DNA of 64,000 bases from Chloroflexia bacterium (GTDB lineage: Bacteria > Chloroflexota > Chloroflexia > QHBQ01 > JADMIH01). The notes beneath the pieces are model-generated. The model saw nothing but the letters and a program-made list of their open reading frames with translations, did not search any database and had not been told where the DNA came from. Made by a program: the position numbers and the translations under genes. The stretch is from NCBI GenBank assembly GCA_034437815.1, contig DAOTTC010000019.1, positions 1,893-65,892 on the forward strand, given 5' to 3'. Positions 28,318-47,796 of this stretch are shown here, in pieces (within the stretch, counting starts at the first letter, position 1; each line of letters opens with the position of its first letter).

Positions 28318-28587
28318 AGGTCAAGTTACCACCATATCCGATAATGCCATGAAAATTGTAGCGCAGGCCGTGTGTGCGTGCAAGCTCAGAAAAGATTTCA
28401 GTGGCGTGCTTCCCCCTCATGGGGGTTGAGGGGTGAGGGTTCAAGCTGATCTCTACGCAGTGTGATATAATTCGTGTAGCGCATTAACCCATTAACTCCA
28501 ACTTCGCTCCGACTCCCCAATCATCAAGGCTATTGCATGTATTCATGCAATGTGTTGGTGGGAGGAGGTCATATCCGGGGAGAAGAG

Positions 28588-28649
28588 AGGGTCGGGAGAG
28601 GGCGAAGCTTTCCCACCGTTGCGCACCAAGTGCCATGAAGTAGCACTAG
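28588..28649 (+). repeat. Dispersed intergenic element, copy 3 (abuts the mutS start)
   Basis: The head AGGGTCGGGAGAGGGC and tail ttgcgcaccaagtgccATGAAGTAGCACTAG closely match the 51848-51918 copy. Confidence 0.6.
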
Positions 28650-28657
28650 GAAGGGGT

Positions 28658-31850: not shown

Positions 31851-33746
31851 ATGCTTATCGAACTGAACATCTCTAATTTCGCTATCATAGACGACTTGCA
31901 TCTACGCCTCGGACCGGGCTTCAATGCGCTGACCGGCGAGACGGGCGCGGGCAAATCAATCATCATTGACGCTCTGGGTGCCCTGCTCGGGTCCAAGACA
32001 GGACCCGAGTTCGTACGCCATGGCTCGCAGACCGCCCGCGTAGAAGGCCTGTTCGACCTGACGCGGATGCACCCCACCCCGCTAGGGCAATTGCGCACGA
32101 TGCTGGCGGAAGGCGGGCTGTCGGACAGCGATGACGGCAGCGATGACACCATCATCATCACCCGCGAGATACATTCATCGGGGCGCACGGTAGCACGCAT
32201 CAACGGGCGATTGGTCAACCTGTCGACGCTCCAGCAGATCGGCGAACTGCTCGTAGATATACACGGGCAGAGCGAGCACGTGTCCCTGCACAGGACTGCC
32301 ACCCACATTGACCTGTTGGACCAGTATGCGGGGTTGGCCGACGAGCGCCGCACCATGGCCGAGCTTGTGGCCCGACTGCGTGCCGCGGCCCGGGAACTGC
32401 GCGACCTCCAGCGTGACGAGCGCGAGCTGGCCCGTCGCGCCGACCTGCTCACCTATCAGGTTGAAGAGATAAGTAGGGCCGCCGTCCACCCCGGCGAAGA
32501 CGAAGAGCTGGCGCGGGAGCGCTCGCGCCTGCTCAACTCGGAGAAGCTGTCGGCGCTGTGCGACTCCATATATGCCCTGCTCATCGAGGCCGAGGGCGAA
32601 GAAAGCGCCTATGGAGTGCGCGGTGGGGCACGCGGCGGGGCCGGTCGGGTGGCCTCCATGCCCGCTATGCCTGCCCCCTCTACTTCGGTACGCGACATGC
32701 TGGGCGATGCCTCGGCCATGCTGGCTGAACTGGCCCGCCTCGACCCTTCGATGGAGCAGCACCAGACCACCATTGATGCCCTCTACGACAGCGTGGAGGA
32801 GCTTGGCAGGGCGCTGCGTGCCTATCGCGAGAGTGTTGAGCACGACCCGGCCCGTCTGGAAGAGATCGAGGAGCGCTTGTCGCTGTTGCACGAACTCAAA
32901 CGCAAGTACGGCCCCACGCTGGAGGACGTGATAGCGTTCGGCGAGCGGGCCGCGCAGGAGCTGGACGCCATCACCCATAGCGAGGAGCGCGTGGCCGCCC
33001 TGCAAGAGCAATGCGAGCGGCTGGGCAAAGAGATAGGCGAACTGGCCGCCCACATGTCGGCTGTGCGCGAGCAGGCGGGCGAGCGGCTGGCGCGGGCGGT
33101 GGAGGGCGCGATGAAGGACCTGCTGATGGGTTCCACAAAGTTCAAGGTGGACTTTACCCGCACGCCGGACGAAGAGGGCGTGCCCCTGCCGGGGCGCGAG
33201 GGCAGATGGGCCTTCTCTGAGAAGGGCGTGGACCGCGTTGAGTTCCTCATATCACCCAACCCCGGCGAACCGCTCAAGCCACTCGCCAAAATAGCTTCAG
33301 GTGGCGAGACCTCGCGCCTTATGCTGGCCCTCAAGTCCATCCTGTCCGAGGCGGACCTGACGCCCACACTAGTGTTCGACGAGGTGGACGTGGGTGTAGG
33401 TGGGCGCAGCGGCGGTGTGGTGGGCGAGAAGCTGTGGGGCCTGACCACCAGCCATCAGGTGCTGTGCATCACCCACCTGCCCCAGATCGCGGCATTTGCC
33501 GACAGCCATTTCAAGATCACCAAACAGGTGGTGGGCGAGCGCACCCGCACTCAGGTCGAAGAACTAGGTCCGCAGGAGCGGGAGCAAGAGATCGCGGCTA
33601 TGCTGGGAGGCCTGCCGGTCTCTAAAGAGGCTCTGGACAACGCCCGCCAGATTTTGAAGGAGACCACGCGCATCAAACAGCACAGGGCACGACAGGCCCG
33701 GCAGGCGGAGGTGCCGGGGGCGGTCACCGCCCCCACAGGCCCTTAG
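31851..33746 (+). CDS. recN: DNA repair protein RecN
   Basis: MLIELNISNFAIID...LTGETGAGKS, a long coiled coil, and a C-terminal ABC-like signature (SGGETSR, VFDEVD). Confidence 0.93.
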   Translation: MLIELNISNFAIIDDLHLRLGPGFNALTGETGAGKSIIIDALGALLGSKTGPEFVRHGSQTARVEGLFDLTRMHPTPLGQLRTMLAEGGLSDSDDGSDDTIIITREIHSSGRTVARINGRLVNLSTLQQIGELLVDIHGQSEHVSLHRTATHIDLLDQYAGLADERRTMAELVARLRAAARELRDLQRDERELARRADLLTYQVEEISRAAVHPGEDEELARERSRLLNSEKLSALCDSIYALLIEAEGEESAYGVRGGARGGAGRVASMPAMPAPSTSVRDMLGDASAMLAELARLDPSMEQHQTTIDALYDSVEELGRALRAYRESVEHDPARLEEIEERLSLLHELKRKYGPTLEDVIAFGERAAQELDAITHSEERVAALQEQCERLGKEIGELAAHMSAVREQAGERLARAVEGAMKDLLMGSTKFKVDFTRTPDEEGVPLPGREGRWAFSEKGVDRVEFLISPNPGEPLKPLAKIASGGETSRLMLALKSILSEADLTPTLVFDEVDVGVGGRSGGVVGEKLWGLTTSHQVLCITHLPQIAAFADSHFKITKQVVGERTRTQVEELGPQEREQEIAAMLGGLPVSKEALDNARQILKETTRIKQHRARQARQAEVPGAVTAPTGP

Positions 33747-33887: not shown

Positions 33888-36800
33888 TTGCTCACTCGGT
33901 TAGGTTACTATGCTGACAGGGTAATAGAGCACGGATGGCTGGCGGCGGCCATGCTGGTGCCGCTATTTTTCAACGTGTACACCAGCCGGGTGTTCGAGCC
34001 GGATAAGATCGCGCTGCTGAGGTCGCTGGTGTTGATCATGGCCGTGGCATGGCTGGTCAAGCTGTTCGAAGGGGGCTACCGGGCCTACCGGTTGTCGGAT
34101 GCACCCACTCGAGGGGGCAGGGCCATGGCCGCCGTGCAAGGCGCAACCGAGCGAGGCCTGCCCCCGTGGCTGGGCTTCCTGCGAGTGCCTATGGTGGTGC
34201 CCATTCTGGTGTACGCGCTGGCCTACTTGATCAGCACCCTGTTCACCGTCACCCCCGACGCCACGTTGTGGGGTTCCTACCAGCGTCTGCAAGGCACCTA
34301 CACTCAGTACAGCTACATATTGCTGGCCTTTCTGGTGATCGCCAACCTGCGCACCCGCGAGCAGTTGGAGCGGCTGGTGAATTTCATGCTGTTCACCTCG
34401 TTGCCCGTGGCCCTGTACGGCATGGTGCAGGCCATGCGCCTCGACCCCCTGCCGTGGGCGGGGGATACCGCCAGCCGCGTGGCCTCCACCATGGGCAATG
34501 CCATTTTCGTGGCCGCGTGGCTCATCATGGTGGTGCCCTTCACTTTGTACAGGCTGATGAACGGCATCAGTGAAGCGCTGGCCGAGCGCCGCGCTATGCC
34601 GGGCGAGGTCTGGCCACCCGCTTCGCGCACCTCACGCAAGTCGCGTGTAACCGCCCCGGCAGATGGGGGCGGTTACACATGGGCGGTGGTAGCCAACAGC
34701 GTGGGCATCATCATGGCCCAACTTTTCATCTTCTACTTCGCCCTCAAGCTGATTGCCGGGCTGTCCTTCCCCGATGCGCGCATGTGGCCCACCCTGCCGC
34801 TGACGCTGGCTACTTTCTACATCAGCATCTGGGCTATCGAGCGGCTGGGCAAACGCCGAGACGACCCGCTTCAGGTCAGCCTGTACATGCCGGCCATTGG
34901 GGCGGTGCTGTTCCTTGCGCTGTTCATGTCTATCCCCTTCTCATGGGGTATAGAGCGGGCCGGCGACCAGTCGTTGAACATACAGGTGGGCTTCGATGGT
35001 CTGGGTCTGTTGTGGGTGCTCTTCTTCATGTTCCTGTGGGGCGCGGTGGCCACGGGCGCGTATGCGCTGAGCGGGGGCGAACGCGTGCACGAAGAGCCCG
35101 GCATCGAGCGGCGCTTTATGCGCATGGCCCTCAACTGGGGCTACGGGCTGTTGATGACTGCGCAGTTGACCTGCATCTACCTCACTCAAAGCCGGGGGCC
35201 GTGGTTGGGGTTGGGCGCCGGGCTGGTGACTTTTGCGCTGGCGCTGTGGCTGGTGGGTCGCAGGAGGGGCATGCGCTGGATGGCACGCATAGGCGGGACG
35301 GTGTCGGCGCTGGTGCTGATGGTGGCGCTGTTCGTGGTCGCCCTGAACATCCCCGGCTCGCCCCTCAAGGCGCTGGACAGCTTGCCCGTGCTCGGCCGGG
35401 GCATCGAGAGGTTGAGCACCCTCACCCAGACCGATGTGGGCACGGGCAAGGTGCGCACCCTCATCTGGAAGGGCGCAACCGACCTGATCCTGTCCGATCC
35501 TGTGCGGGCCGTCATCGGCTGGGGACCGGAGGCCATGTACGTGGCCTACAGCCCATTCTACCCACCCGAACTTGCCCACTGGGAACTGCGCAACGCCACC
35601 CCCGACCGCTCGCACAATGTGGAGTTCGACCAACTGGTGACGGTGGGCGCACTGGGCCTGTTGGCCTACTACTTCCTCGTGGGCGCGTTCTTCTTTTATG
35701 GCATCCGCACTATTCGGCGGGCCGTGGGCACGCGCGATCAGCTTCTGGCTATCACGCTGGTGTCGGCCATGGCCGCGCACTTCATTGAAATCCAGACGGG
35801 CATACAGATAGCCGCCACTTGGACTTACTTCTACCTGATCATAGCCATGATGGTGGCTTTGGGCTACTTCATCACGGGCTATCTGCGTGTGAGTGGAGAT
35901 GCGTCGGCTTCGGCGGGGCAGGCATCGGGCGATGGCGCGGTGGAGGCGGATGTGCCCTCCGAGGCGTTGGCGCAACCGGTGGTGGCCGCCACCACCGGGC
36001 CGGGCGCATCTAAACGGACTTCGCAGGCGCTCAGAGCAGGGGTGGGGGGCGACGGCAGGCAGTCGGCCAGAGCGCAAAGCCCACAAGGCTCCAGAGGGCA
36101 GGGCCGCAACGGGGGCCAGCCGCGCCACGCGGATCCCCGCCAGAGGCAGGCGCGCCTGCCGGTGTCAGAGCGTGCTGCATCCCATGCCGACTGGATGCGC
36201 AACCCCGCGATGGCGGTGGTGTACGTGATAGTGGCCGTGGCAGTGCTCACCTTCATCTCGGCGGTGAACGTGGCTACCGTGCGGGCCGACACGCTGTACA
36301 AGCAGGGGCTTGCCTATGACAACGCCGGGCGCTGGCCTGAAAGCATAGAACTGTACAGCCGGGCAATTGCCCTGCAACCCAATCAGGATTATTACTACCT
36401 GTTCCTCGGTCGCGCATGGCTGGAGTTCGCCAAGCAAGCGGATCAGGAACAGGTCAACATGCGCCGATTCTACGAGTCGCAGGGCACCGTGCAGGAGCCA
36501 TATCTGGACCAGAAGGAGCAGGATAAGCAAAAAGCCGCCCGCGACGAGCAGGTCAAGCGCAGGGCTGAGAAAGAGTACCGGCTGAAGCAGAGCGAGGCGG
36601 TGCTCAAACGCGCCAACGAGCTCAACCCCCTGAACGCCGACCATTACGCCAACCTTGGTCGTCTGTACCTGTACTGGGGCGACCCAACCGGTGGCAACGA
36701 CCCGACCAAACAACCATTGGCCGTGCAGTACATGGAGAAGGCAGTGGGCCGCGCCCCCGGCAACGCTCAACTGTGGGACGAGCTGGCGGTGGCCTATTCG

Positions 36801-37511
36801 CGCAACAACCAGTTCGACAAAGCCATACAGACCCTTGAACATTCGCAGAACAAGGTGGACCCGCAGTATGCCCGCACCCCCTTCATCAGGGGGCAACTGT
36901 ATCAGGAGCGAGCCATGATCGTGAAGAGCGCCCTGCAAACCGGCAGACCCCTGCCCACCAACGGCGAGACCGACTACGGCAAATTGGTACTGGAGGCGGG
37001 CAAAGCTTACTCGGAGACCATCGCGCTCGATCAATCGGTGTTCGTGGACAGCAACTTCAAGGCGCGGGTGGACTTCCTGCTGGATGCGGCAGCCCCGTTC
37101 ACGCAAACCAACACCCGTCTGGACCCCCAGACAGTGAGCAACGCGCTCACATCAACGGTCATGCTGGCCTTTGAATTGCAGGTGCTTAAGCATGAGAAAG
37201 ACGTGGCCGATTTCCTGCGCGAGCGTGGGCTGTTCAGCGGTATGGAGAATCAGGTGCCCGACCAACTGCTCCAATCATTGTGGGCAGACCCGGCATGGGC
37301 ACGAGCAGCCACCGCAGCCGGTCAGAAGAGTTGGCGCGACCCCACTTTTGCGGCGCTGACCCACAACGCAGCTGTAACGCATTACGCACTGGGCTATATC
37401 TACGCAAAAGTGGGGCGCACAGACCACGCGAGACAACAGTACGAGCGCGCGCTGGCCCTCGAACCCACCTATCAGGACGCGCAAACCGAGCTTGACGCTT
37501 TGAATAAATAA
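33888..37511 (+). CDS. O-antigen ligase/polymerase-like polytopic membrane protein fused to C-terminal TPR repeats
   Basis: An AAGGAGA RBS precedes TTG 33888. There are more than 10 hydrophobic segments. A basic low-complexity linker joins to a TPR-like C-terminus (e.g. YDNAGRWPESIELYSRAIALQPN). Confidence 0.85.
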   Translation: MLTRLGYYADRVIEHGWLAAAMLVPLFFNVYTSRVFEPDKIALLRSLVLIMAVAWLVKLFEGGYRAYRLSDAPTRGGRAMAAVQGATERGLPPWLGFLRVPMVVPILVYALAYLISTLFTVTPDATLWGSYQRLQGTYTQYSYILLAFLVIANLRTREQLERLVNFMLFTSLPVALYGMVQAMRLDPLPWAGDTASRVASTMGNAIFVAAWLIMVVPFTLYRLMNGISEALAERRAMPGEVWPPASRTSRKSRVTAPADGGGYTWAVVANSVGIIMAQLFIFYFALKLIAGLSFPDARMWPTLPLTLATFYISIWAIERLGKRRDDPLQVSLYMPAIGAVLFLALFMSIPFSWGIERAGDQSLNIQVGFDGLGLLWVLFFMFLWGAVATGAYALSGGERVHEEPGIERRFMRMALNWGYGLLMTAQLTCIYLTQSRGPWLGLGAGLVTFALALWLVGRRRGMRWMARIGGTVSALVLMVALFVVALNIPGSPLKALDSLPVLGRGIERLSTLTQTDVGTGKVRTLIWKGATDLILSDPVRAVIGWGPEAMYVAYSPFYPPELAHWELRNATPDRSHNVEFDQLVTVGALGLLAYYFLVGAFFFYGIRTIRRAVGTRDQLLAITLVSAMAAHFIEIQTGIQIAATWTYFYLIIAMMVALGYFITGYLRVSGDASASAGQASGDGAVEADVPSEALAQPVVAATTGPGASKRTSQALRAGVGGDGRQSARAQSPQGSRGQGRNGGQPRHADPRQRQARLPVSERAASHADWMRNPAMAVVYVIVAVAVLTFISAVNVATVRADTLYKQGLAYDNAGRWPESIELYSRAIALQPNQDYYYLFLGRAWLEFAKQADQEQVNMRRFYESQGTVQEPYLDQKEQDKQKAARDEQVKRRAEKEYRLKQSEAVLKRANELNPLNADHYANLGRLYLYWGDPTGGNDPTKQPLAVQYMEKAVGRAPGNAQLWDELAVAYSRNNQFDKAIQTLEHSQNKVDPQYARTPFIRGQLYQERAMIVKSALQTGRPLPTNGETDYGKLVLEAGKAYSETIALDQSVFVDSNFKARVDFLLDAAAPFTQTNTRLDPQTVSNALTSTVMLAFELQVLKHEKDVADFLRERGLFSGMENQVPDQLLQSLWADPAWARAATAAGQKSWRDPTFAALTHNAAVTHYALGYIYAKVGRTDHARQQYERALALEPTYQDAQTELDALNK

Positions 37512-37526
37512 CCAATGGTGCCTTAT

Positions 37527-37669
37527 ACCGGGCGCAGGCGTAGGGGCAGGCCCCCGTGCCTGCCCTATTTGCAGGCCCCTGTGCCTGCCCTATTCTAAAC
37601 ACCGGGCGCAGGCGTAGGGGCAGGCCCCTGTGCCTGCCCTATTTGCAGGCCCCTGTGCCTGCCCTATTC
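37527..37669 (+). repeat. Tandem 69-nt repeat x2 (period 74), each holding two GCAGGC-CCCTGT-GCCTGC hairpins; terminator-like
   Basis: Copies at 37527-37595 and 37601-37669 differ at one position. They lie directly after the stop at 37511 and upstream of the GT4 gene. Confidence 0.85.
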
Positions 37670-37715
37670 GCATCCCCTGCCGGGGGTAGAGATAGAAACA
37701 GAGGCAAGGCAGAAG

Positions 37716-38858
37716 ATGCTCACATCGGGACTGAGGATTGACATAGGACCGCTGCTGTTGATATTTCTGGCGGCGTTGCTGTTCGTGCTGGCGGCCACAC
37801 CGGTGGTCAAACGGGTGGCCCACAGGTACAACGTGGTGGACGTGCCCTCGGCCCGCAAGATACACGCTGGCCCGGTGCCCTTGCTGGGCGGGGCGGCCAT
37901 CTATCTGGCGGTGATCGCCGCCCTGTTGTTGTACGGCCACTTGAGCTATGTACAGCAGACCGCCTCCATCTTGATCGGGGCCACCATGATGTCCATGCTG
38001 GGCGTGTGGGACGACAAGTGGGGCTTGCGGCCCCTCGCCAAGCTCGGAGGGCAGGTGGTGGCCGCCTCACTGCTCTACTTCACTGGGGTGAGCGTGTCGT
38101 TCCTGCACAACGACTTACTGAACTATCTGGCGACGGTGGGCTGGGTGGTCACGGTGACCAACGCGCTCAACCTGATGGACAACATGGACGGGCTGGCAAG
38201 TGGTGTGGCTATGGTGGCCTCGATATTCTTCTTCTTGATAGCCACCCTCACCGACCAGTATCTGGTGGCCCCGCTGGCGGCGGTGCTGGTGGGGGCTTGC
38301 GCGGGCTTTTTGTTCTACAACCTCAACCCGGCTTCGATATTCATGGGGGATGCCGGCTCGCTGTTTCTCGGGTTCATGCTGGCGGCGGTGGGCATCAAAC
38401 TGCGCTTCCCCGAAAATTTGGACATCGTCACGTGGATGGTGCCGGTGCTGGTGCTGGGGGTGCCTCTGTTCGATACGGCGCTGGTCACCCTGTCGCGCAT
38501 CCGGCGGGGCATCCCCATCACGCGGGGCGGCAGGGACCATCTGTCCCACCGCTTGGTGGCGCTGGGCTTCACCCGGCGGGAAGCAGTGCTGATACTGTAC
38601 CTGATACAGGGGGGGCTGGGCATCGCCGCGCTGGTGGTGATGCAGGCTACCGTGCTGGAAGGCTACATAGTGGGTTTGGCGATACTGTTGGCCGCCGTGG
38701 TGGGTGCGTACAGGCTGGAGCAGGTGGACCTGACGCACACCAACCCCGCGCCGGAGGGCACGCCCGCGCCGGTGCCCCTGTCGGCCCGCCTGCCCTTGTC
38801 CCTGCGCAGAAAGCGCCCCGCCGAGAGCACGAAGGGTGATGGGTCAGGGGCAGGCTGA
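37716..38858 (+). CDS. Glycosyltransferase family 4 (WecA/MraY-like polyprenyl-phosphate sugar-1-phosphate transferase)
   Basis: Polytopic membrane protein with motifs VWDDKWGL and NALNLMDNMDGLASG. Confidence 0.9.
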   Translation: MLTSGLRIDIGPLLLIFLAALLFVLAATPVVKRVAHRYNVVDVPSARKIHAGPVPLLGGAAIYLAVIAALLLYGHLSYVQQTASILIGATMMSMLGVWDDKWGLRPLAKLGGQVVAASLLYFTGVSVSFLHNDLLNYLATVGWVVTVTNALNLMDNMDGLASGVAMVASIFFFLIATLTDQYLVAPLAAVLVGACAGFLFYNLNPASIFMGDAGSLFLGFMLAAVGIKLRFPENLDIVTWMVPVLVLGVPLFDTALVTLSRIRRGIPITRGGRDHLSHRLVALGFTRREAVLILYLIQGGLGIAALVVMQATVLEGYIVGLAILLAAVVGAYRLEQVDLTHTNPAPEGTPAPVPLSARLPLSLRRKRPAESTKGDGSGAG

Positions 38859-38877: not shown

Positions 38878-39921
38878 CTATCTGCTTGCCTGCTCGCGCC
38901 ACAGGTCCACCATTGACTTGATAGAAGCTATGTAGCTGGGCGGGTGGTTGTTGTCGCCCCATGGCGCGTATACAGGCACGATCTGATCTACGGTCCGCAG
39001 GTTCCACTGGCCGATGTACAGCTCGGTTATCAGTTTGTACCAGTCCTCGAAGCCCGCTTCCCAGCTGGGATAGAGGCGGTAGCCTTCGTAGTTTTCGTAG
39101 CCCTCGGTCCAGCGGATGTTGCCCAGCGAGCGCGTGAAGCGGGCCACACCTCGCGTGCCGCAGGCGCTCTCGTGCACGAAGAAGGCCAGCGCAAAAGCCG
39201 GGTCAATCCCATAAGTCACGCCAAGATCATACAGCCTCTGACCCAGACCGGCGGCAGGCGAGCCGTACTTTTGCAGGACGGCCTCGATCTGCGCCACGCC
39301 GATGCTGGGCGGCCCTACGACTTCGTAGGGTTGGCCGGTGGGCGCGTGTTGCGCGGGCGGGGCGGGCGGGGCGGGCGGCGGCTGAGCCTCTGGTTGAGGC
39401 TCAGGGTTTGCCGGGACGGTTTGTTGGGCCTTGACGGGTTGTGGGCCTGCCGACAGCTCGGTGTAGCCGCTGAGCACAAGCCCTTCCGAGCCACGGGCAA
39501 GGGCGGGCGTGACTACCAATAACATCCAAGCGAGCGCGGCCACGGTTGCGCACAACCCCACCGCAAGCAGGCCACGCCACACCACATTTGCAGCCGGGGG
39601 TACCGATGCCCGGCGGAGCAGGCCATCCCCGGTAAGGAGGTGACCGTAGAGGTCCCTGCCTTGTGCATAACCGGGCGGGCTGGGAACAGAGCGGGCCGCG
39701 CGGGGCGAGCCTTCGGGTATGGCCGCCAAGACCCACTGGGGGTGGGGGGCGTGCATCGCCTGCATCGTCGCTATCGTGGAGCCGGCATCTCCGCCCAGCA
39801 CCCGGTAGATGGTGGTGAGGGTGGGGGCAGGGGCGAGGGTGGATTTTGCGCCCCTGCGCTGCACGGACGGGTGGTGAGCAACCTGCGGCAGGTCGCGGGC
39901 GAGCAAGGCGGCGCGGCTCAC
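38878..39921 (-). CDS. Single-pass membrane protein with a C-terminal glucosaminidase/muramidase-like domain
   Basis: The GTG start overlaps the upstream stop (GTGA). One TM segment is WRGLLAVGLCATVAALAWMLLVV, followed by a Pro-rich linker. The C-terminal YGIDPAFALAFFVHESACG...IRW segment resembles a mannosyl-glycoprotein endo-beta-N-acetylglucosaminidase-type domain. Confidence 0.8.
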   Translation of the reverse strand: MSRAALLARDLPQVAHHPSVQRRGAKSTLAPAPTLTTIYRVLGGDAGSTIATMQAMHAPHPQWVLAAIPEGSPRAARSVPSPPGYAQGRDLYGHLLTGDGLLRRASVPPAANVVWRGLLAVGLCATVAALAWMLLVVTPALARGSEGLVLSGYTELSAGPQPVKAQQTVPANPEPQPEAQPPPAPPAPPAQHAPTGQPYEVVGPPSIGVAQIEAVLQKYGSPAAGLGQRLYDLGVTYGIDPAFALAFFVHESACGTRGVARFTRSLGNIRWTEGYENYEGYRLYPSWEAGFEDWYKLITELYIGQWNLRTVDQIVPVYAPWGDNNHPPSYIASIKSMVDLWREQASR

Positions 39922-40757
39922 TTGCCGCCCTCCTCGACACCGTTGTTGGTGTTGTTCGTGTCGCCGCCGGGGTTGGTCTTCCCTTGCTCTTGCGATTGAA
40001 GCGGGAGAGCCTTCTGGAGAGCGGCACGCTCTTCGGGTGTGATCAGGCGGAAGGCCGCCCCATCGTTCAGGTAGATAAGTTGCTCGCTCTTGACCGACAC
40101 CACCAGATCGGGCTTGCTGTCGGCGTTCACATCATGCACGTCCAGTTGCACGGGGGTGAGGTCTTCACCCTGACCGAACAGGTAGGGGCCGACTATGGCC
40201 GTGGCCTTGGTGGGGTCGCCGCCCGGCATTTCCATGATGATCACCCGGCGGTTCAGGTTCATGGCGATGAAATGCGAGGGCATGCCTTCGGCCTCACCGT
40301 GCCCCACATAGGCGTCCACCTGCATGGTGCGAGGCCGGCCATACTGGATGTCGTCCAGCGTGATGCGTGCCCACTCGACGGCCATACTCACCAGCACATA
40401 TACCCCCAACAGCACGATCGCCCCACCCGCGAGCATCGCCACGAGGCGAACGGGCACGCCCGGCGCGGCCGCCTGCTCGCCGGCCTGCGCGGCCTTTCTG
40501 CCGGGTTGCGGGTGTGGGGCGGTGGGCTTGATGGGCACAGGTGCGGGCGAGGGCTTCTGCCGGGCAGGCGGCTGTTGCCGACGCGGGGCAGGTGCCGGCA
40601 TGGCGTGTAGCTGTGGCGTGCCTTCGAACAACTCCTCGTCGGTTAGCGCGTCCAGTGGAAGCCAGTGGCCGGTCCTCGGTTCATCTTCTTCGTGTGGGCG
40701 GCCCCAGTCGTACGAGCGGGCGTTGGCCCCGTGAGAGCGGGTGAAAGTGGTTGCCAT
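39918..40757 (-). CDS. Hypothetical single-pass membrane protein (Pro-rich cytoplasmic N-terminus, extracytoplasmic domain)
   Basis: A strong AAGGAGG RBS lies 7 nt before ATG 40757. The TM segment is VRLVAMLAGGAIVLLGVYVLVSMAV. No family was recognised. Confidence 0.8.
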   Translation of the reverse strand: MATTFTRSHGANARSYDWGRPHEEDEPRTGHWLPLDALTDEELFEGTPQLHAMPAPAPRRQQPPARQKPSPAPVPIKPTAPHPQPGRKAAQAGEQAAAPGVPVRLVAMLAGGAIVLLGVYVLVSMAVEWARITLDDIQYGRPRTMQVDAYVGHGEAEGMPSHFIAMNLNRRVIIMEMPGGDPTKATAIVGPYLFGQGEDLTPVQLDVHDVNADSKPDLVVSVKSEQLIYLNDGAAFRLITPEERAALQKALPLQSQEQGKTNPGGDTNNTNNGVEEGGK

Positions 40758-40799
40758 GGTTGTACCTCCTTAGTAGTCCTCTGAGCACTGTTCCCAGTT

Positions 40800-41033
40800 T
40801 CAGTTACTGAACGCATAAGACAGACAGAGCAGGGCGCTGTACGAACGCAGAGCCATGCCCATGCCGGACCTTGGGTCGGCTATGGCATCGGTCTCCTCAA
40901 GGTTTGCCACCACATAGCAGTCGGCATCCGGTCGGCTGATCAGCAGGATGGATAGCAGGTCCCGACGCAGGAGCAATCGGGGTGCTGTGCGCTCGGCCCA
41001 AAGGGGGGCACGTTGGAACAGCATGGCGTTCAT
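40800..41033 (-). CDS. 77-aa hypothetical protein, first gene of the putative SOS-box operon
   Basis: A GGAGGTGA RBS lies 4 nt before ATG 41033. Third positions are G/C-rich. No homology was recognised. Confidence 0.55.
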   Translation of the reverse strand: MNAMLFQRAPLWAERTAPRLLLRRDLLSILLISRPDADCYVVANLEETDAIADPRSGMGMALRSYSALLCLSYAFSN

Positions 41034-41057
41034 GTGGTCACCTCCGCGTATCGTTAT

Positions 41058-41106
41058 GGAACGTTTGTTCTATAGCGTTCTAATGATAAATTAGAACAAA
41101 CGTTCC
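41058..41106. promoter_or_regulatory. Two LexA/DinR-type SOS boxes (GAAC-N4-GTTC) forming a perfect 15-bp inverted repeat
   Basis: GGAACGTTTGTTCTA lies at 41058-41072 (box core 41059-41070). TAGAACAAACGTTCC lies at 41092-41106 (box core 41094-41105). Confidence 0.7.
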
Positions 41107-41111
41107 GTCAA
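41083..41111 (-). promoter_or_regulatory. Promoter TTGACG-17-TATCAT (minus strand) overlapped by the SOS boxes
   Basis: On the minus strand, the -35 TTGACG is at 41111-41106 and the -10 TATCAT at 41088-41083. One box fills the spacer and the other lies just downstream of the -10. Confidence 0.6.
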
Positions 41112-41163
41112 GGGGGTTTTCCACATCTTTGCGGCGATTTTTGTCCCTGTGTGGCAATAAGAT

Positions 41164-43291: not shown

Positions 43292-44164
43292 TTACTTGAT
43301 CGCGTACACCACCTGCACGTCCACGCGTATCTCTTGATTGCCCGGCTGGATCGGGGTGGGCACGCCCGATGCACCCTGAGCGGCCCTTGCATCCAGCTCC
43401 ATGACCGGTGGTGGTACGTTCACCACACCTTCGCTGATCATAATGGGCGCGCCCAGACTGACCCCACTCAGACCGGCAAGCTGTTCGGCTTTGGCTTTTG
43501 CGTCCTGCATGGCGCGCTCTCGCGCCTGCTTGGTCAGCGCGGTGGGGTCGGAGAAGCTGAAGCGCAGGCCGTACACGGTATTGGCCCCGGACCTCACTAC
43601 GTCGTCCACCGTTTTACCCGCTTTGCTGATGTCCCGCAATTTGGCATTGACTATATTGGTCACGCGGAACCCTATTAGTCTGGGGGACTGGTTGTCGCGG
43701 TAGTCCATCACCGGTTCAACGCTGTATTGCGCAGTGGAGATGTCGTTTTCGGCCACACCCGAAGCTTTGAGCTGGTTTATCACAGCGTTCATCTTGTCCA
43801 CAGCTTCGGCCTGTGCCGCATCGAGCGAATCTCTCTGTATCTGTACGCCCACCTGCAACTCCACCATGTCGGGCCGAGCCGACACGATGCCCTGCCCACT
43901 CACAGAGATGTGGGGCTGGTCGCTTATCGTAGCCATGCTTGGTGCTCCTATCGGCTGGTACTGGGTCTTAGACGCTGGGGCATCAGCCTGCGGCCCGCCG
44001 GCGGTCAGCCCCGTGCCCGTGCCCGTGTCCGTGCCTGTGGCGTTGCCGATCTCCGGGCCACGGGGCACGAGCCATACCAGTATGAATGCCGCCAGCAGCA
44101 GGGCTATCGTGCCCACGGATGTGGCAGTTATGATAAATTTGCCGTTCCACCTGTTTCGGTTCAC
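43292..44164 (-). CDS. SIMPL (DUF541) domain-containing periplasmic/secreted protein
   Basis: An N-terminal TM/signal segment and SIMPL-like sequence (GQGIVSARPDMVELQVGVQ...). GTG 44164, 8 nt after AGGAGG, is preferred over GTG 44173, which overlaps the RBS. Confidence 0.85.
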   Translation of the reverse strand: MNRNRWNGKFIITATSVGTIALLLAAFILVWLVPRGPEIGNATGTDTGTGTGLTAGGPQADAPASKTQYQPIGAPSMATISDQPHISVSGQGIVSARPDMVELQVGVQIQRDSLDAAQAEAVDKMNAVINQLKASGVAENDISTAQYSVEPVMDYRDNQSPRLIGFRVTNIVNAKLRDISKAGKTVDDVVRSGANTVYGLRFSFSDPTALTKQARERAMQDAKAKAEQLAGLSGVSLGAPIMISEGVVNVPPPVMELDARAAQGASGVPTPIQPGNQEIRVDVQVVYAIK

Positions 44165-44394
44165 GTGGTTCACCTCCTGTAGATTATGGTTTGGTTTCGG
44201 CTGTTAGCAGGCAACTGAGGGAAGAGCAGGATGGAGCAAATCCCCCCTCATGTCTTCCGCTTCTTTAGCCATGCAGCTAGCCTCGTTATTGGGGTGGTAA
44301 CCCTTTGTATTGTGAGGACGACCGAGACGAGCTGAAAGTTCCACGCACGGCGCGGTCACTATCACCCAAATTGACTATTTTTACAAAAACGAGC

Positions 44395-44423
44395 TACAAA
44401 TTTAGTATCGGGTATGCTATAAT
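44395..44423 (+). promoter_or_regulatory. Extended -10 promoter (TACAAA-17-TGCTATAAT), copy 1
   Basis: TGCTATAAT at 44415-44423, within a 550-nt A/T-richer intergenic region. Confidence 0.45.
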
Positions 44424-44466
44424 ACGCTCGACCAACAGGGTGTAGCAAAAAACAACCCTTGCACAG

Positions 44467-44495
44467 TACAAGATTAGACCAAACTGTGCTATAAT
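44467..44495 (+). promoter_or_regulatory. Extended -10 promoter (TACAAG-17-TGCTATAAT), copy 2
   Basis: TGCTATAAT at 44487-44495, 72 nt downstream of copy 1 and with the same architecture. Confidence 0.45.
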
Positions 44496-44722
44496 AATAG
44501 CATTGAAGCACTACTCCGGATCGGGAAACTACACACGATGTAATTTCAACGTCTAGCCACTCGTGAGACATGGTGCATAAAGTAGTACCCTTACACTACA
44601 CCTTCCTGCCGACCAATCCGACGAGCAGAGCGAAGATAGAGGACTCGTGGGTGGTGAAAAGGCATGTACACTGCTTACGCACTACGTTTCGCATAGTGCA
44701 TACATCATGAGAGGAGTGATAA

Positions 44723-46225
44723 ATGGTCTCAACACTTTCAGCTAAAACGCTGGGACAGCGCATCAGGCAGATTCGCATCCGCCGAGGCCTCACCCAGCAA
44801 GACCTTGCTGGAGAAGACTATTCCAAGAGCTACATATCGGCCATCGAGCAGGGCAAGACCCGGCCATCGCTGAAAGCCTTGCAGCGCATCGCCGCCCGGC
44901 TGGAAGTGCCCGCAGGCACTTTGCTCGACCCGGAGGCCCGCGGCTTCGGACCGATAGACGAAACCATGCCCAAACGGGTGCGACGTAGGAAAGGGATGCG
45001 CCCCGGCCCCGGCGGCTACATCAGCCCATCTTACACCGAATTCCAGCTGGCGCGGGCCGAACTGCTAATCATGTTGGGCCAACCGACCCAAGCCCTCGAA
45101 GTGCTCCGCCCCTTGATACCCACCGAAGACGAACCTACGCAGGGGCAGACCCCTAGGCTCATGGAATCGGCGCAGGTCCTGCGCATGTACCATCTGGCGG
45201 CAAAGGCGGCCATCCGTGGCGACCGGTTGGCAGAGGCGCACGAATTCCTTCGCAAAGCCATACAACTCGCCGAGCGGGTGGACGACCGGGAAGAGATCGA
45301 GCGGCTGCGCAACCTACTCGGCGTAGCCTACTACCAGTCCGGTCAGGTGCTCTCTGCTCTGGAAGAACACAAGCAATGTCTGGCGGCGGTGCAAGCAGGC
45401 AGGGTGCAAGACCCCAACTTCAAGCTGGCCGTGTACAATAACATCGCACGCGATTACGCCGCCCTGCACGACAACGAGCGCGCCATGGCCACCTATAAAG
45501 ATGCGCTGACCTTGATAGAGTCGGTGAACGATCTGGAGCGGCAGGCCAACATCTTCGTGGACCTGTCCACCACCTACGCCAACCATGACGATTACTGGTC
45601 GGCCAATCGCTTCGCCACTAAAGCCACGGGTGTGTATCAGGTCCTCAGCCACATGCAGCAATTGGTGCGCATGCAGACCAGATACGCCGAATTGCTGATT
45701 GATGCCGGGCAGTTGGAAGAGGCCGAGCGATGCCTCATGTCAGGCCTACAATTGGCCGAAGACTTGGGCAGCAACCTCGATCGTGCGATGGCGCTGGCTA
45801 ATCTGGCCCGTGTGAGCCTACAGCGGGGCAACGATAAAGAAGCACAGGAGCGCAGCGAGCAGGCCGTGCAGATAAGCCGTCAGGTAGTGCAGACCATCGA
45901 AGCTGCCGACAGGGGTCAAGAAGGCGGAGACGGGGCCGCCGCCCACTACAGATACGGTTACGGACGCGCTCAGGCCATGCAGGTGCTGGCAAAGTCACTG
46001 GCTATCGCGGGCGAAGTGGCCGCTAAACAGGGCGAGGACCGCCGGGCCGACAAACTCTTCGAGGAAGCCATAAAGATACTGTCCAACCAGCCTGCGGAGG
46101 TCTCCGAGATATCGAGTGAGATCTACGAGAGCTACGCTCGCCTGCTTGCCGGCAGGGGCCAGCACGAGCGTGCCGCTACCTACTTCGAGCAGGCGTACAG
46201 GGCGATCACCCGCCGGCCCCGATAG
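44723..46225 (+). CDS. XRE-family HTH transcriptional regulator fused to TPR repeats
   Basis: A GAGGAG RBS precedes the start. The HTH reads LGQRIRQIRIRRGLTQQDLAG..SKSYISAIEQGKTRPSLKALQRIAARLEV. The C-terminal ~400 aa are TPR-like. Confidence 0.9.
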   Translation: MVSTLSAKTLGQRIRQIRIRRGLTQQDLAGEDYSKSYISAIEQGKTRPSLKALQRIAARLEVPAGTLLDPEARGFGPIDETMPKRVRRRKGMRPGPGGYISPSYTEFQLARAELLIMLGQPTQALEVLRPLIPTEDEPTQGQTPRLMESAQVLRMYHLAAKAAIRGDRLAEAHEFLRKAIQLAERVDDREEIERLRNLLGVAYYQSGQVLSALEEHKQCLAAVQAGRVQDPNFKLAVYNNIARDYAALHDNERAMATYKDALTLIESVNDLERQANIFVDLSTTYANHDDYWSANRFATKATGVYQVLSHMQQLVRMQTRYAELLIDAGQLEEAERCLMSGLQLAEDLGSNLDRAMALANLARVSLQRGNDKEAQERSEQAVQISRQVVQTIEAADRGQEGGDGAAAHYRYGYGRAQAMQVLAKSLAIAGEVAAKQGEDRRADKLFEEAIKILSNQPAEVSEISSEIYESYARLLAGRGQHERAATYFEQAYRAITRRPR

Positions 46226-46338
46226 ACCGGGCCGAGGTGGTTGCCGGAGTGCACTTGCGGGCGCGGGTGCAAGGTGAGCGGCCCGCCAACTGGTGGGCAT
46301 GTTGGCGCACGCATTAGCACATTAGCACAACAGGAACG

Positions 46339-46376
46339 ACAGGGGCGGTGGTTTGATCCACGCCCCTGTTTGCTTT
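46339..46376 (+). terminator. Terminator hairpin after the XRE-TPR gene
   Basis: ACAGGGGCG(g)TGG...CCACGCCCCTGT followed by TTGCTTT. It abuts the stop of the convergent gene. Confidence 0.6.
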
Positions 46377-47796
46377 ACTTGTGGGTGATGACCAGCGTGC
46401 CTATGGGTGCCCATTCGTATACCCATCTGGCGGCATCGGGGGGCAGGTTGACGCAGCCATGGCTCATCGGCTGGCCGAAGTTGCTGTGCCAGTAGGCCCC
46501 GTGCAGGGCATAGGCCGAGTAGAAGTACATCACATAGGGCACATTCGGCAGGAAGTAGTAATCCGCGCCGGTGCCACCGCGCATATCCTGTGCCCTGTAC
46601 TTCGCGTAGACGCGATAGGTGCCCTCCACCGTCGGATAGCGGGCGAGGCCTGTGCTGACTTTGGATACAAACACCGGCGTTTGCCCCTCAAAAGCCGTCA
46701 TGGTTTGCGTGCTGATGTCCACGTCAATCCACTTAGGACCCAGCTTGCCCATCGGGATGACATTCACAGGTCGAGACGCAGGTGTAGAAGCGGGGTCCGG
46801 AGAGGCAGGGGTTGATGGAGTGGACGGCGCAGAAGGAGCCGGCGTGGGTTCGTCTTCACCCCCATCACTGCCCTGACGGATGATGAGTGTCTGGCCCACG
46901 CGTAGAAAGTTGGGGTTCTGAATGTTGTTCAGCCTCCTCAGCGCCTCCACCGTGGTGTTGAACTTGGCCGCTACGGTGGACAGGTTATCGCCGGGCTGTA
47001 TTGTATACCGGATGGTGCTACCCTGCCCGCCCGGGTCACCGCTCGGCTCCGGACTGGGGGGTGGCAGGGTGGCGCTCGGTCGGGGCGCGGGGGTGGCAGT
47101 AGGGGCAGGTTGTTGAGGTTGAGGTGATGCCTGTTCGGCTTGCCCCGGAATCCTCAGCACCTGACCAATGTAGAGCAGGCTGGACGGAGAAAGGCCATTG
47201 GCCGCCGCCAGAGCCTCGCGGCTCACTCCGAACCTCTGGGCCAGCGTGATCAGGTTGTCGCCGGGTTGCACCACATAGGTGCCGGGAGCCTGCCCGCCGG
47301 GGTTTGGATTGGGGTCTGTACTGGTCGTGCTACCCGCGCTGCCGGCAGGTATGACCAGCGCCTGCCCTGCATAGATGATGGTGGAGTTGAGGCCGTTGGC
47401 CTGCATCAGCGCCTCGGTGGTCGTGCCGAAGCGCAGCGCTATCTCGCTCAGAGTGTCTCCCGGCTGTACGGTGTAGGTGCCCGGAGCCGAGTTTGCGCGC
47501 GCCTGTTGAGCCTGAGCCGCCGGTCTGGTGCCCGCGGTAGGTATTATGAGCACTTGACCTGCGTAAATAGTAGAGCGCGACGGCAGGTTGTTTGCGGCCA
47601 CGATGTCATCCACCGTCACGCCGAAGCGTGCAGCGATGCTGATAAGGGTATCACCGGGCTGTACTTTATATGTGGTGTCGGCGTAAGCAACTTCCGCAAC
47701 CGGGCCAAGCATCAGCATGAGGGCTAGCACCACGACCAGCGCAATCCGCGCAGACCGCCCCCATACACTCAGCTGGTTGGTCAAGCCATTTCTCAC
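46375..47796 (-). CDS. 4x LysM + YkuD-domain L,D-transpeptidase
   Basis: Four LysM repeats (Y.VQPGDTL..IA.RFG....L...N) and the catalytic motif SHGCVNLP. The GTG start follows a GGGAGGGTGA RBS. Confidence 0.92.
   Translation of the reverse strand: MRNGLTNQLSVWGRSARIALVVVLALMLMLGPVAEVAYADTTYKVQPGDTLISIAARFGVTVDDIVAANNLPSRSTIYAGQVLIIPTAGTRPAAQAQQARANSAPGTYTVQPGDTLSEIALRFGTTTEALMQANGLNSTIIYAGQALVIPAGSAGSTTSTDPNPNPGGQAPGTYVVQPGDNLITLAQRFGVSREALAAANGLSPSSLLYIGQVLRIPGQAEQASPQPQQPAPTATPAPRPSATLPPPSPEPSGDPGGQGSTIRYTIQPGDNLSTVAAKFNTTVEALRRLNNIQNPNFLRVGQTLIIRQGSDGGEDEPTPAPSAPSTPSTPASPDPASTPASRPVNVIPMGKLGPKWIDVDISTQTMTAFEGQTPVFVSKVSTGLARYPTVEGTYRVYAKYRAQDMRGGTGADYYFLPNVPYVMYFYSAYALHGAYWHSNFGQPMSHGCVNLPPDAARWVYEWAPIGTLVITHK

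Follow-up and report, generated by a model that had tools for sequence, protein, structure and literature searches.

Introduction

Does a promoter with two LexA-type operators place a small operon of an uncultured soil Chloroflexia bacterium under the SOS response, and could this operon act as a checkpoint of cell division or of the cell wall? The question was raised by a 64-kb stretch of DNA (64,000 nucleotides of contig DAOTTC010000019.1, referred to here as the window), in which three genes on the minus strand, named small77, mem279 and gluc347, encode a small protein, a single-pass membrane protein and a membrane-anchored protein with a glucosaminidase-like domain. SOS division inhibitors are lineage-specific and were each discovered separately (SulA, YneA, SosA, DivS, ChiZ, SidA and DidA). 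The Chloroflexota are a large phylum that has received little study; most of its members are filamentous and multicellular, and their envelope is unusual. We know of no SOS-induced division inhibitor in this phylum. Full-text literature searches returned no paper linking LexA with Chloroflexus, Roseiflexus, Herpetosiphon, Ktedonobacter or Chloroflexota, and none on a checkpoint function. The promoter sequences and gene orders analyzed here indicated that the operon is very probably under SOS (LexA) regulation.

Two LexA-type boxes in one predicted promoter

Analysis of the window revealed a perfect inverted repeat of 15 nt, whose arms, GGAACGTTTGTTCTA (41058-41072) and TAGAACAAACGTTCC (41092-41106), were 100% complementary and separated by 19 nt. 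Each arm contained an exact GAAC-N4-GTTC box (Table 1), and these two boxes were the only exact matches in the 64-kb window. A consensus scan of the minus strand placed them in a predicted promoter, in which TTGACG and TATCAT, with a 17-nt spacer between them, matched the consensus at 10 of 12 positions. Box 1 began right after the -35 hexamer and occupied 12 of the 17 spacer bases, and box 2 began 12 nt past the -10 hexamer, covering about +5 to +17 relative to the inferred transcription start. The minus strand read cccTTGACG-GAACGTTTGTTC-TAATT-TATCAT-TAGAACGCTATA-GAACAAACGTTC-cataacgatacgcGGAGGtgaccacATG. All coordinates of the repeat given in the original prediction were correct, and the scan confirmed its promoter layout, with one box in the spacer and the other just past the -10 hexamer.

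The number of boxes was not significant by itself, as 0.56 exact boxes were expected per window and 10 of 100 shuffled sequences reached at least two. The occurrence of two boxes within ~50 nt on a promoter had a probability of ~1e-3 at the background rate by our own arithmetic. Boxes with one mismatch were not enriched across the window (12 found, 15 expected). The question was settled by orthologous promoters, in which the boxes were conserved.

Conservation of the operators

A profile of the mem279 family was used to collect 80 loci from species-representative genomes; the taxon labels of metagenome-assembled genomes (MAGs), such as "Thermomicrobiales", were taken as given. The loci came from Chloroflexia MAGs, Herpetosiphonaceae, Roseiflexaceae/Roseiflexus, Chloroflexaceae and MAGs labelled Thermomicrobiales, as well as from Ktedonobacteria, and they included the cultured Kouleothrix aurantiaca (L043), Thermosporothrix hazakensis (L069) and Dictyobacter aurantiacus (L070), the latter two being Ktedonobacteria. 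Hundreds of homologues were found for both mem279 and gluc347, almost all of them in uncultured Chloroflexia MAGs and often on the same contigs, and an exhaustive profile search with mem279 returned 2383 cluster representatives.

Among the 71 orthologous loci that could be assessed, 46 had at least one exact box in the 250 nt preceding the first gene (64 boxes in total, 0.2 expected), compared with 6 exact boxes in the remaining ~540 kb of these loci. When one mismatch was allowed, at least one site was present in 59 of the 71 loci, against a background of 0.07 per 250-nt window. None of the six background boxes preceded a recognizable SOS gene, and one pair of them was located between a Lon-like and a TetR-like gene.

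In the closest ~20 species-level genomes, twin exact boxes preceded the mem279 orthologue by 330-480 nt and lay directly upstream of the small77 orthologue, at a distance of 36-40 nt from each other, compared with 35 nt from start to start in the window. In the aligned promoters, the TTGAC of the -35 hexamer, GAAC..TGTTCT.A of box 1, the -10 hexamer and AGAAC..GT.C of box 2 were invariant, and the central N4 of each box and all surrounding sequence were variable. Because the N4 and the flanks varied freely while the box cores were kept, selection appears to act on the box cores. The two boxes of the relatives had unrelated N4 sequences, and therefore the complementarity between the arms in the window seems incidental: the perfect repeat of the original prediction was present but peculiar to this genome, and the selected feature, as read from the alignment, is a pair of separate palindromic operators.

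Distant lineages without small77 showed the arrangement cTTGAC-NN-GAAC-N4-GTTC-(-10), followed by a second box that often contained one mismatch, directly 5' of mem279. This layout of -35 hexamer, box, -10 hexamer and second box was kept in Herpetosiphonaceae, Roseiflexaceae, Chloroflexaceae and Kouleothrix, and some Ktedonobacteria retained a box close upstream of mem279. Ktedonobacteria with two mem279 paralogues were also observed (L048/L075 on DATGMF010000065/56, and L061/L076 on DASRHT010000023/58). In these pairs, only one copy was closely preceded by an exact LexA box, which suggests that the copies were sub-functionalised into an SOS-controlled and a constitutive form.

Two further elements were seen next to the core promoter. 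An upstream element was located at the same position in L001-L025, and its G-T-G, A and A-A were invariant in 16 orthologous promoters (alignment A5); it may serve as an UP element or bind an activator that works alongside LexA. The TAGAAC half-site in front of box 2 yielded an 8-bp inverted repeat, GTTCTAAT/ATTAGAAC (41077-41084 and 41090-41097), which straddled the -10 hexamer and was absent in relatives.

Linkage to lexA in a sister clade

GAAC-N4-GTTC is the LexA operator in Dehalococcoides. In Firmicutes and Actinobacteria, it is likewise established as the motif of LexA (PMC3323433). A tblastn search of the 80 loci with an E. coli LexA query found LexA matches in three loci (L023, L028 and L029), each immediately 5' of the mem279 homologue and on the same strand. 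The L029 protein was a bona fide LexA, scoring 186.5 bits against the TIGR00498 equivalog (cut-off 110.95), and the gene order at this locus was a divergent HAD hydrolase gene, the box GAACATATGTTC, lexA, the mem279 homologue and a GH73 homologue, the last two joined by a stop/start overlap. A metagenome scan with the L029 LexA identified five further close relatives (L081-L085), all with a box 46-84 nt upstream of lexA. Four of them (L081-L084) were long enough to tell the surrounding order and had the divergent HAD gene and the downstream mem279 homologue, and L082-L084 reached the GH73 gene as well. The mem279 homologue was located immediately 3' of lexA and in the same direction in seven sister-clade loci (L023, L028, L029 and L081-L084), and in these loci lexA was preceded by GAACATATGTTC or GAACAAATGTTC at 46-84 nt.

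Most of the sister-clade lexA promoters had the box in the spacer (TTGACA-GAACATATGTTC-TACCATATACT), which is the same design as that of the window promoter, and several had a second, degenerate site downstream; in L083 and L084, the exact box was located after the -10 hexamer and not in the spacer. LexA is thus predicted to regulate its own gene through GAAC-N4-GTTC in this part of the phylum, and in the sister clade lexA is predicted to share an operon with mem279 and gluc347. The motif had been assigned to LexA in the original prediction by its likeness to Bacillus-type operators, and its presence before a TIGR00498 gene in related Chloroflexota, at seven loci, bore this out. Together with the conserved twin-box promoter, the linkage to lexA also supports the SOS reading of the operators.

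The co-localization with lexA was seen in these seven loci and was absent in the window itself. The divergent HAD hydrolase gene of the sister clade was syntenic with that of the window, and therefore lexA and small77 occupy the same slot. The idea that small77 is a degraded lexA was rejected (hhalign probability against LexA, 0.1%). Of the distant LexA loci of the metagenome scan (at most 46% identity), 25 were checked (L086-L110), and all of them lacked both an exact box and a mem279 gene; these loci are probably from other phyla. In the lexA-linked clade, the intergenic region between lexA and the mem279 homologue contained a hairpin, CGGACCGC-loop-GCGGUCGG, abutting the ribosome-binding site (RBS) of the latter (L029:3740-3790, L023:610-659 and L028:3905-3952), with z ~-2.4 in two of the three sequences. 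This hairpin may limit the translation of the effector relative to that of the repressor.

The shuffling result would be compatible with a chance palindrome, with an RNA or DNA hairpin, or with an operator that binds a different regulator. We consider this extremely unlikely. The orthologous promoters kept the cores of the boxes, not the complementarity between the arms. The upstream arm precedes the -10 hexamer, so it is not transcribed. An RNA element in the leader was considered and rejected, since the 5' untranslated region folded no better than shuffled sequences (z = -0.6) and matched no Rfam family. The same box was also found in front of lexA itself.

mem279 as the conserved core

The ~100 N-terminal residues of mem279 were predicted to be disordered, rich in Pro and Arg, and cytoplasmic. 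They were followed by a single hydrophobic segment (residues 97-132) with a transmembrane helix at ~103-128; in the model, the helix spanned residues 103-139 and led into a beta domain. The ectodomain of ~150 residues was beta-rich and very strongly conserved, with the motifs LDDxQYGRPRT, PSHFxAMNLNRR, GPYLFGQGEDLTPV and an FG-GAP-like DxNxDxxxDL. The scores against the FG-GAP families PF13517 and PF01839 reached only 13 bits, below the cut-offs, and some homologues carried a precomputed PF13517. The AlphaFold model had a mean pLDDT of 60, and ~70-77 in the ectodomain. Weak Foldseek matches of this pLDDT 60 model, all with E >=0.1, were to two-blade RSL lectin units and to blades of the GlcNAc-binding PVL propeller; the likeness to propeller blades is taken as a lead and not as a result. 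Matches of the Pro-rich linker to gliding_GltJ and DUF6264 were far below threshold and were discarded as originating from low complexity.

The database names of the homologues of the operon were "hypothetical protein", "FG-GAP repeat protein" and "glucosaminidase domain-containing protein". A cluster look-up of distant mem279 homologues found only "hypothetical protein" entries and one kinase fusion. This fusion, P0452 (620 residues, from a JGI metagenome), consisted of a Hanks-type Ser/Thr kinase (PF00069, residues 12-256), a membrane span and a mem279-type ectodomain, which places the mem279 domain outside the cytoplasm. The fusion suggests a ligand-binding role for the ectodomain. The mem279 module appeared to be reused in P0452 as the extracellular sensor domain of a kinase, as PASTA domains are in PknB-type kinases.

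These observations bear on a different view of the operon, in which the LexA operators are genuine and the proteins serve envelope maintenance independently of damage, with LexA setting their basal level, or in which mem279 works as a sensor with feedback on LexA. The reuse of the ectodomain in a Ser/Thr kinase, the co-operonic position with lexA in the sister clade and the envelope-rich neighborhood (a GT4 glycosyltransferase, a Wzy_C-TPR protein and a LysM-YkuD L,D-transpeptidase) would fit such a role. An operator in the core promoter with a second one downstream is, however, the classical arrangement for tight repression relieved by damage, and the lexA genes of the sister clade use the same design. 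Maintenance or sensing therefore appears distinctly improbable.

The gene content of the 80 loci also pointed to mem279. A gluc347 homologue followed mem279 in 37 of the 80 loci, namely in the clade of the window, the lexA-linked clade, Herpetosiphonaceae and a few others, including unclassified MAGs. In Roseiflexaceae, Kouleothrix, most Chloroflexaceae and Ktedonobacteria, mem279 stood alone, with unrelated genes next to it and gaps of more than 100 nt. Because mem279 was present in all 80 loci, while gluc347 was restricted and small77 occurred in one clade only, the stable evolutionary unit is, by gene content, the LexA box with mem279 and not the hydrolase. The original prediction needs correction on this point: most of the more distant lineages with a conserved box had no hydrolase gene at the locus.

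gluc347 and small77

The gluc347 protein consisted of a variable cytoplasmic N-terminus, in which the initial MSRA was kept in homologues, one transmembrane helix at ~115-140, a Pro-rich linker and a C-terminal catalytic domain of 145 residues at ~200-345. Its score against Pfam PF01832 was 25.1 bits, below the cut-off of 30.2, although most close homologues carried a precomputed PF01832. The model had pLDDT >90 over residues 200-345, and the top 15 Foldseek matches were all GH73 enzymes with probabilities of 0.82-1.00, the best being LytB (E = 4.9e-4). The nearest structures at probability 1.00 were LytB, C. perfringens Acp, AtlE, Auto, SagB and FlgJ. H250-E251-S252 was invariant in 26 gluc347 homologues, and the motif HES(G/A)CGT aligned with HETGNGT of the C. 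perfringens glucosaminidase 5wqw. The position of E251 is presumably that of the general-acid glutamate of GH73 enzymes, compare the mutants E138A and E585Q. The glucosaminidase assignment of the original prediction thus fell short of the Pfam threshold and was confirmed by the modelled GH73 fold and the invariant H-E-S motif, which identify gluc347 as a membrane-anchored GH73 N-acetylglucosaminidase with predicted activity.

The nature of these nearest structures raises another possibility. LytB, Acp, AtlE and Auto are cell-separation or autolytic glucosaminidases, and the hosts belong to filamentous multicellular lineages (PMC7332563). The operon might direct SOS-regulated wall cleavage, in which the derepressed GH73 enzyme, positioned or activated by mem279, would sever septal peptidoglycan, so that filaments break or damaged cells lyse in a programmed fragmentation or autolysis. 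The regulatory evidence would be the same as for a division checkpoint. Outside the clade of the window, the lexA-linked clade, Herpetosiphonaceae and the few unclassified MAGs, however, most lineages keep the box and mem279 without a GH73 gene at the locus, and therefore hydrolysis cannot be the conserved output. The tethered enzyme, with its linker of ~60 residues, would also reach only the wall near the membrane. Wall cleavage as the purpose of the operon is thus considered unlikely.

The small77 protein was soluble, with no hydrophobic segment, and had no match in Pfam, NCBIfam, PHROGs or PADLOC. Homologues with 39-64% identity were present in 21 genome loci, where they invariably separated the boxes from the second gene, and a profile search extended the family to 95 hypothetical proteins of 77-98 residues from the same clade, all without Pfam domains and sharing the motif AP.WAE.TAPR...P.LLL...DAIADPNS.LGRLLR.HCALL.LPY.S.N. 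small77 occurred only where mem279 kept the N-terminal motif M..TRS.GANAR..W...G.WLPLD.L.DEE.Y (columns 1-60 of alignment A1), which hints at a partnership between small77 and the N-terminus of mem279. The gluc347 homologues shared an extreme N-terminus of their own, MSRA...YRLLG, and the conserved N-terminal motifs of mem279 and gluc347 may be docking motifs for a cytoplasmic partner.

Proposed function

The chances are about even that these genes form a LexA-repressed SOS operon encoding cell-envelope effectors of a division or wall checkpoint, a proposal guided by analogy with known inhibitors. LexA binding at this promoter, induction by damage, a target in division or the wall and a role of small77 are what we infer, in the following order of events. 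In the undamaged cell, LexA dimers would occupy both Cheo-type operators and block the binding of RNA polymerase and its escape from the promoter. Upon DNA damage, RecA-stimulated self-cleavage of LexA would derepress the promoter, and the three proteins would be made together. Through its transmembrane helix and ectodomain, mem279 would reach the septal machinery of peptidoglycan synthesis or the septal wall and, like the non-homologous YneA, SosA, DivS and ChiZ, would delay septation until repair is complete. The co-translated gluc347 would cut glycan strands near the membrane and thereby reinforce or execute the effect on the wall, and small77 would probably modulate the long cytoplasmic N-terminus of mem279.

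Several points weigh against this checkpoint. LexA binding, damage induction and the block of septation are drawn from sequence and analogy, and the evidence for the operator at lexA comes from lexA genes of the sister clade, as the lexA gene of the window organism lies outside the window. As the loci have a common ancestry, the boxes counted for the enrichment are not independent of one another. No exact GAAC-N4-GTTC was found upstream of recN in the window, nor upstream of mutS, and either the predicted SOS regulon may be small or recN may have degenerate sites; the two genes were located 7-12 kb from the operon. A Foldseek search of the PDB with mem279 returned no match below E = 0.1, and a sequence profile search of the PDB returned none. 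With 279 residues and no LysM domain, mem279 is larger than the known inhibitors (~30-170 residues), and the sister-clade genes run in the same direction as lexA, unlike the divergent yneA, sosA and chiZ. Furthermore, GH73 enzymes such as LytB normally promote cell separation and do not block division.

A more specific proposal, which is doubtful at present, is that mem279 provides the filamentous Chloroflexota with the SOS cell-cycle checkpoint effector that has been missing for them. It would be a new phylum-wide family of envelope proteins under LexA control, ancestrally co-operonic with lexA, whose two-blade, propeller-like ectodomain binds septal peptidoglycan or the FtsW/FtsI synthase and which, in some lineages, recruits a membrane-tethered GH73 enzyme, so that damage halts septation or severs the filament at the damaged cell. 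If true, a module of repressor, inhibitor and hydrolase would have no described counterpart.

Gene organization and neighborhood

The three co-directional reading frames, their strong RBSs and the overlap of the mem279 stop with the gluc347 start (GTGA, 39918-39921) were all present as originally described, and the same three genes were called independently in three public assemblies (by the JGI, ENA and Logan gene callers). The features are listed in Table 1.

Table 1. Positions of the operon, its promoter elements and neighboring features in the window
Feature	Position	Strand	Remarks
Upstream conserved element GATGTGGAAAAC	41116..41127	-	Clade consensus ATTG..N..TTGTGGAAAAC; just 5' of the -35 hexamer
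-35 hexamer TTGACG	41106..41111	-	Consensus scan; TTGAC invariant in 16 orthologous promoters
LexA box 1 GAACGTTTGTTC	41094..41105	-	Exact match; GAAC and TGTTCT invariant, N4 variable in orthologues
-10 hexamer TATCAT	41083..41088	-	Consensus scan; TA...T conserved in orthologues
Extra TAGAAC half-site	41077..41082	-	Abuts the -10 hexamer; this genome only, not conserved
LexA box 2 GAACAAACGTTC	41059..41070	-	Exact match; AGAAC...GT.C invariant in orthologues
Gene 1, small77, 77 aa	40800-41033	-	GGAGG RBS 41041-41045, 8 nt before the start codon
Gene 2, mem279, 279 aa	39918-40757	-	GGAGG-type RBS 40765-40771
Gene 3, gluc347, 347 aa	38878-39921	-	GGAGG-type RBS 39929-35; GTG start
recN	31851-33746	+	SMC_N/AAA_23; true start ATG 31851 (MLIELNISNF...)
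mutS	28550-31543	+	
Rfam sroE match, below threshold	40006-40093	+	25.2 bits (gathering score 51), E = 0.007
Envelope-rich flank	33888-38858		
Envelope-rich flank	43292-47796		
XRE-HTH/TPR regulator	44723-46225		

No terminator was found 3' of gluc347; the convergent gene of a GT4 (WecA/MraY-like) glycosyltransferase ended 19 nt from the gluc347 stop. Both flanks were rich in envelope genes, and the neighbors included a 1207-residue Wzy_C O-antigen-ligase-like protein with TPR repeats, a SIMPL/DUF541 protein and a 4xLysM-YkuD L,D-transpeptidase, as well as an XRE-HTH/TPR regulator. The sroE match, antisense within the coding region of mem279, was regarded as chance.

A membrane protein and a peptidoglycan hydrolase behind a LexA-type operator resemble a lysis module, and the operon could in principle be a domesticated prophage cassette of a holin-like protein and an endolysin with an SOS-responsive promoter. 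This origin is very unlikely. None of the three proteins had a PHROG or PADLOC match, no phage genes flanked the operon, and the synteny with the HAD hydrolase, glucokinase and GT4 genes was stable across many species-level genomes. In addition, mem279, with one transmembrane helix and a folded ectodomain of ~150 residues, is unlike holins.

Comparison with known systems

The SOS division inhibitors of Gram-positive bacteria are not homologous to one another and share LexA control, co-localization with lexA, one transmembrane helix and an extracellular C-terminus (PMC6851548). The association with lexA, from which the known inhibitors are transcribed divergently, was the route by which YneA, SosA, DivS and ChiZ were found (PMC6851548). 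YneA is active only if its transmembrane helix binds FtsW and its ectodomain binds the wall (PMC13396833), and ChiZ combines a block of division with a reported cell-wall hydrolase activity (PMC6851548).

YneA of Bacillus subtilis, encoded in the lexA-adjacent yneA-yneB-ynzC operon, and mem279 are alike in their GAAC-N4-GTTC control, the linkage to lexA, the single transmembrane helix and the extracellular C-terminal domain; YneA is also the first effector of a small operon. They have no homology in sequence or domains. Instead of LysM, mem279 has a beta-rich, FG-GAP-like ectodomain of ~150 residues, and it is ~2.5 times larger, has a cytoplasmic tail of ~100 residues, lies downstream of lexA and in the same direction, and has a GH73 partner. 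ChiZ (Rv2719c) of Mycobacterium tuberculosis is likewise a DNA-damage-inducible, lexA-adjacent single-pass membrane protein (PMC6851548). However, ChiZ is one LysM protein, whereas here the putative inhibitor and a canonical GH73 hydrolase are separate and without homology to it. Searches of mem279 for a LysM domain or a family shared with YneA or ChiZ (Pfam, NCBIfam) and for a PDB sequence match were negative; mem279 is evidently not a member of the YneA/ChiZ LysM family, and the likeness would be one of architecture and function only. SosA of Staphylococcus aureus and DivS of Corynebacterium glutamicum, which also lack LysM, are lineage-specific, LexA-controlled, lexA-linked single-pass proteins with an extracellular C-terminus (PMC6851548), but they are much smaller (77 residues in SosA) and have neither a folded ectodomain nor a hydrolase partner.

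For gluc347, a parallel is SagB-SpdC of S. aureus, described for the SagB structure 6u0o as a "peptidoglycan release complex", with which it shares the GH73 fold, the catalytic Glu motif, one N-terminal transmembrane anchor and a membrane partner. That partner is a polytopic CAAX-type protein in SagB, compared with the single-pass mem279 and its beta-rich ectodomain. The identity of gluc347 to the GH73 glucosaminidases SagB, LytB, AtlE, Acp, Auto and FlgJ was only 8-16%, and its Pfam score was below threshold. We know of no other GH73 enzyme under LexA control, and the locus would be, to our knowledge, the first case of a canonical GH73 enzyme in a LexA-controlled operon, which bears on the coupling of wall hydrolysis to a division checkpoint.

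Taken together, the locus looks like a member of the class of SOS-controlled membrane division inhibitors, to which it would add a new ectodomain, a GH73 partner and, in some lineages, an operon running in the same direction as lexA. Because its sites are conserved across the phylum and some relatives place the genes directly behind lexA, we regard the operon as the strongest candidate for a checkpoint that would act on division or the cell wall of these filamentous bacteria in the SOS response. The operator is conserved, the genes are physically linked to lexA and cultured strains carry the locus, which makes the candidate concrete and testable; even if its function proved ordinary, the operon would cleanly extend the SOS regulon in a new phylum.

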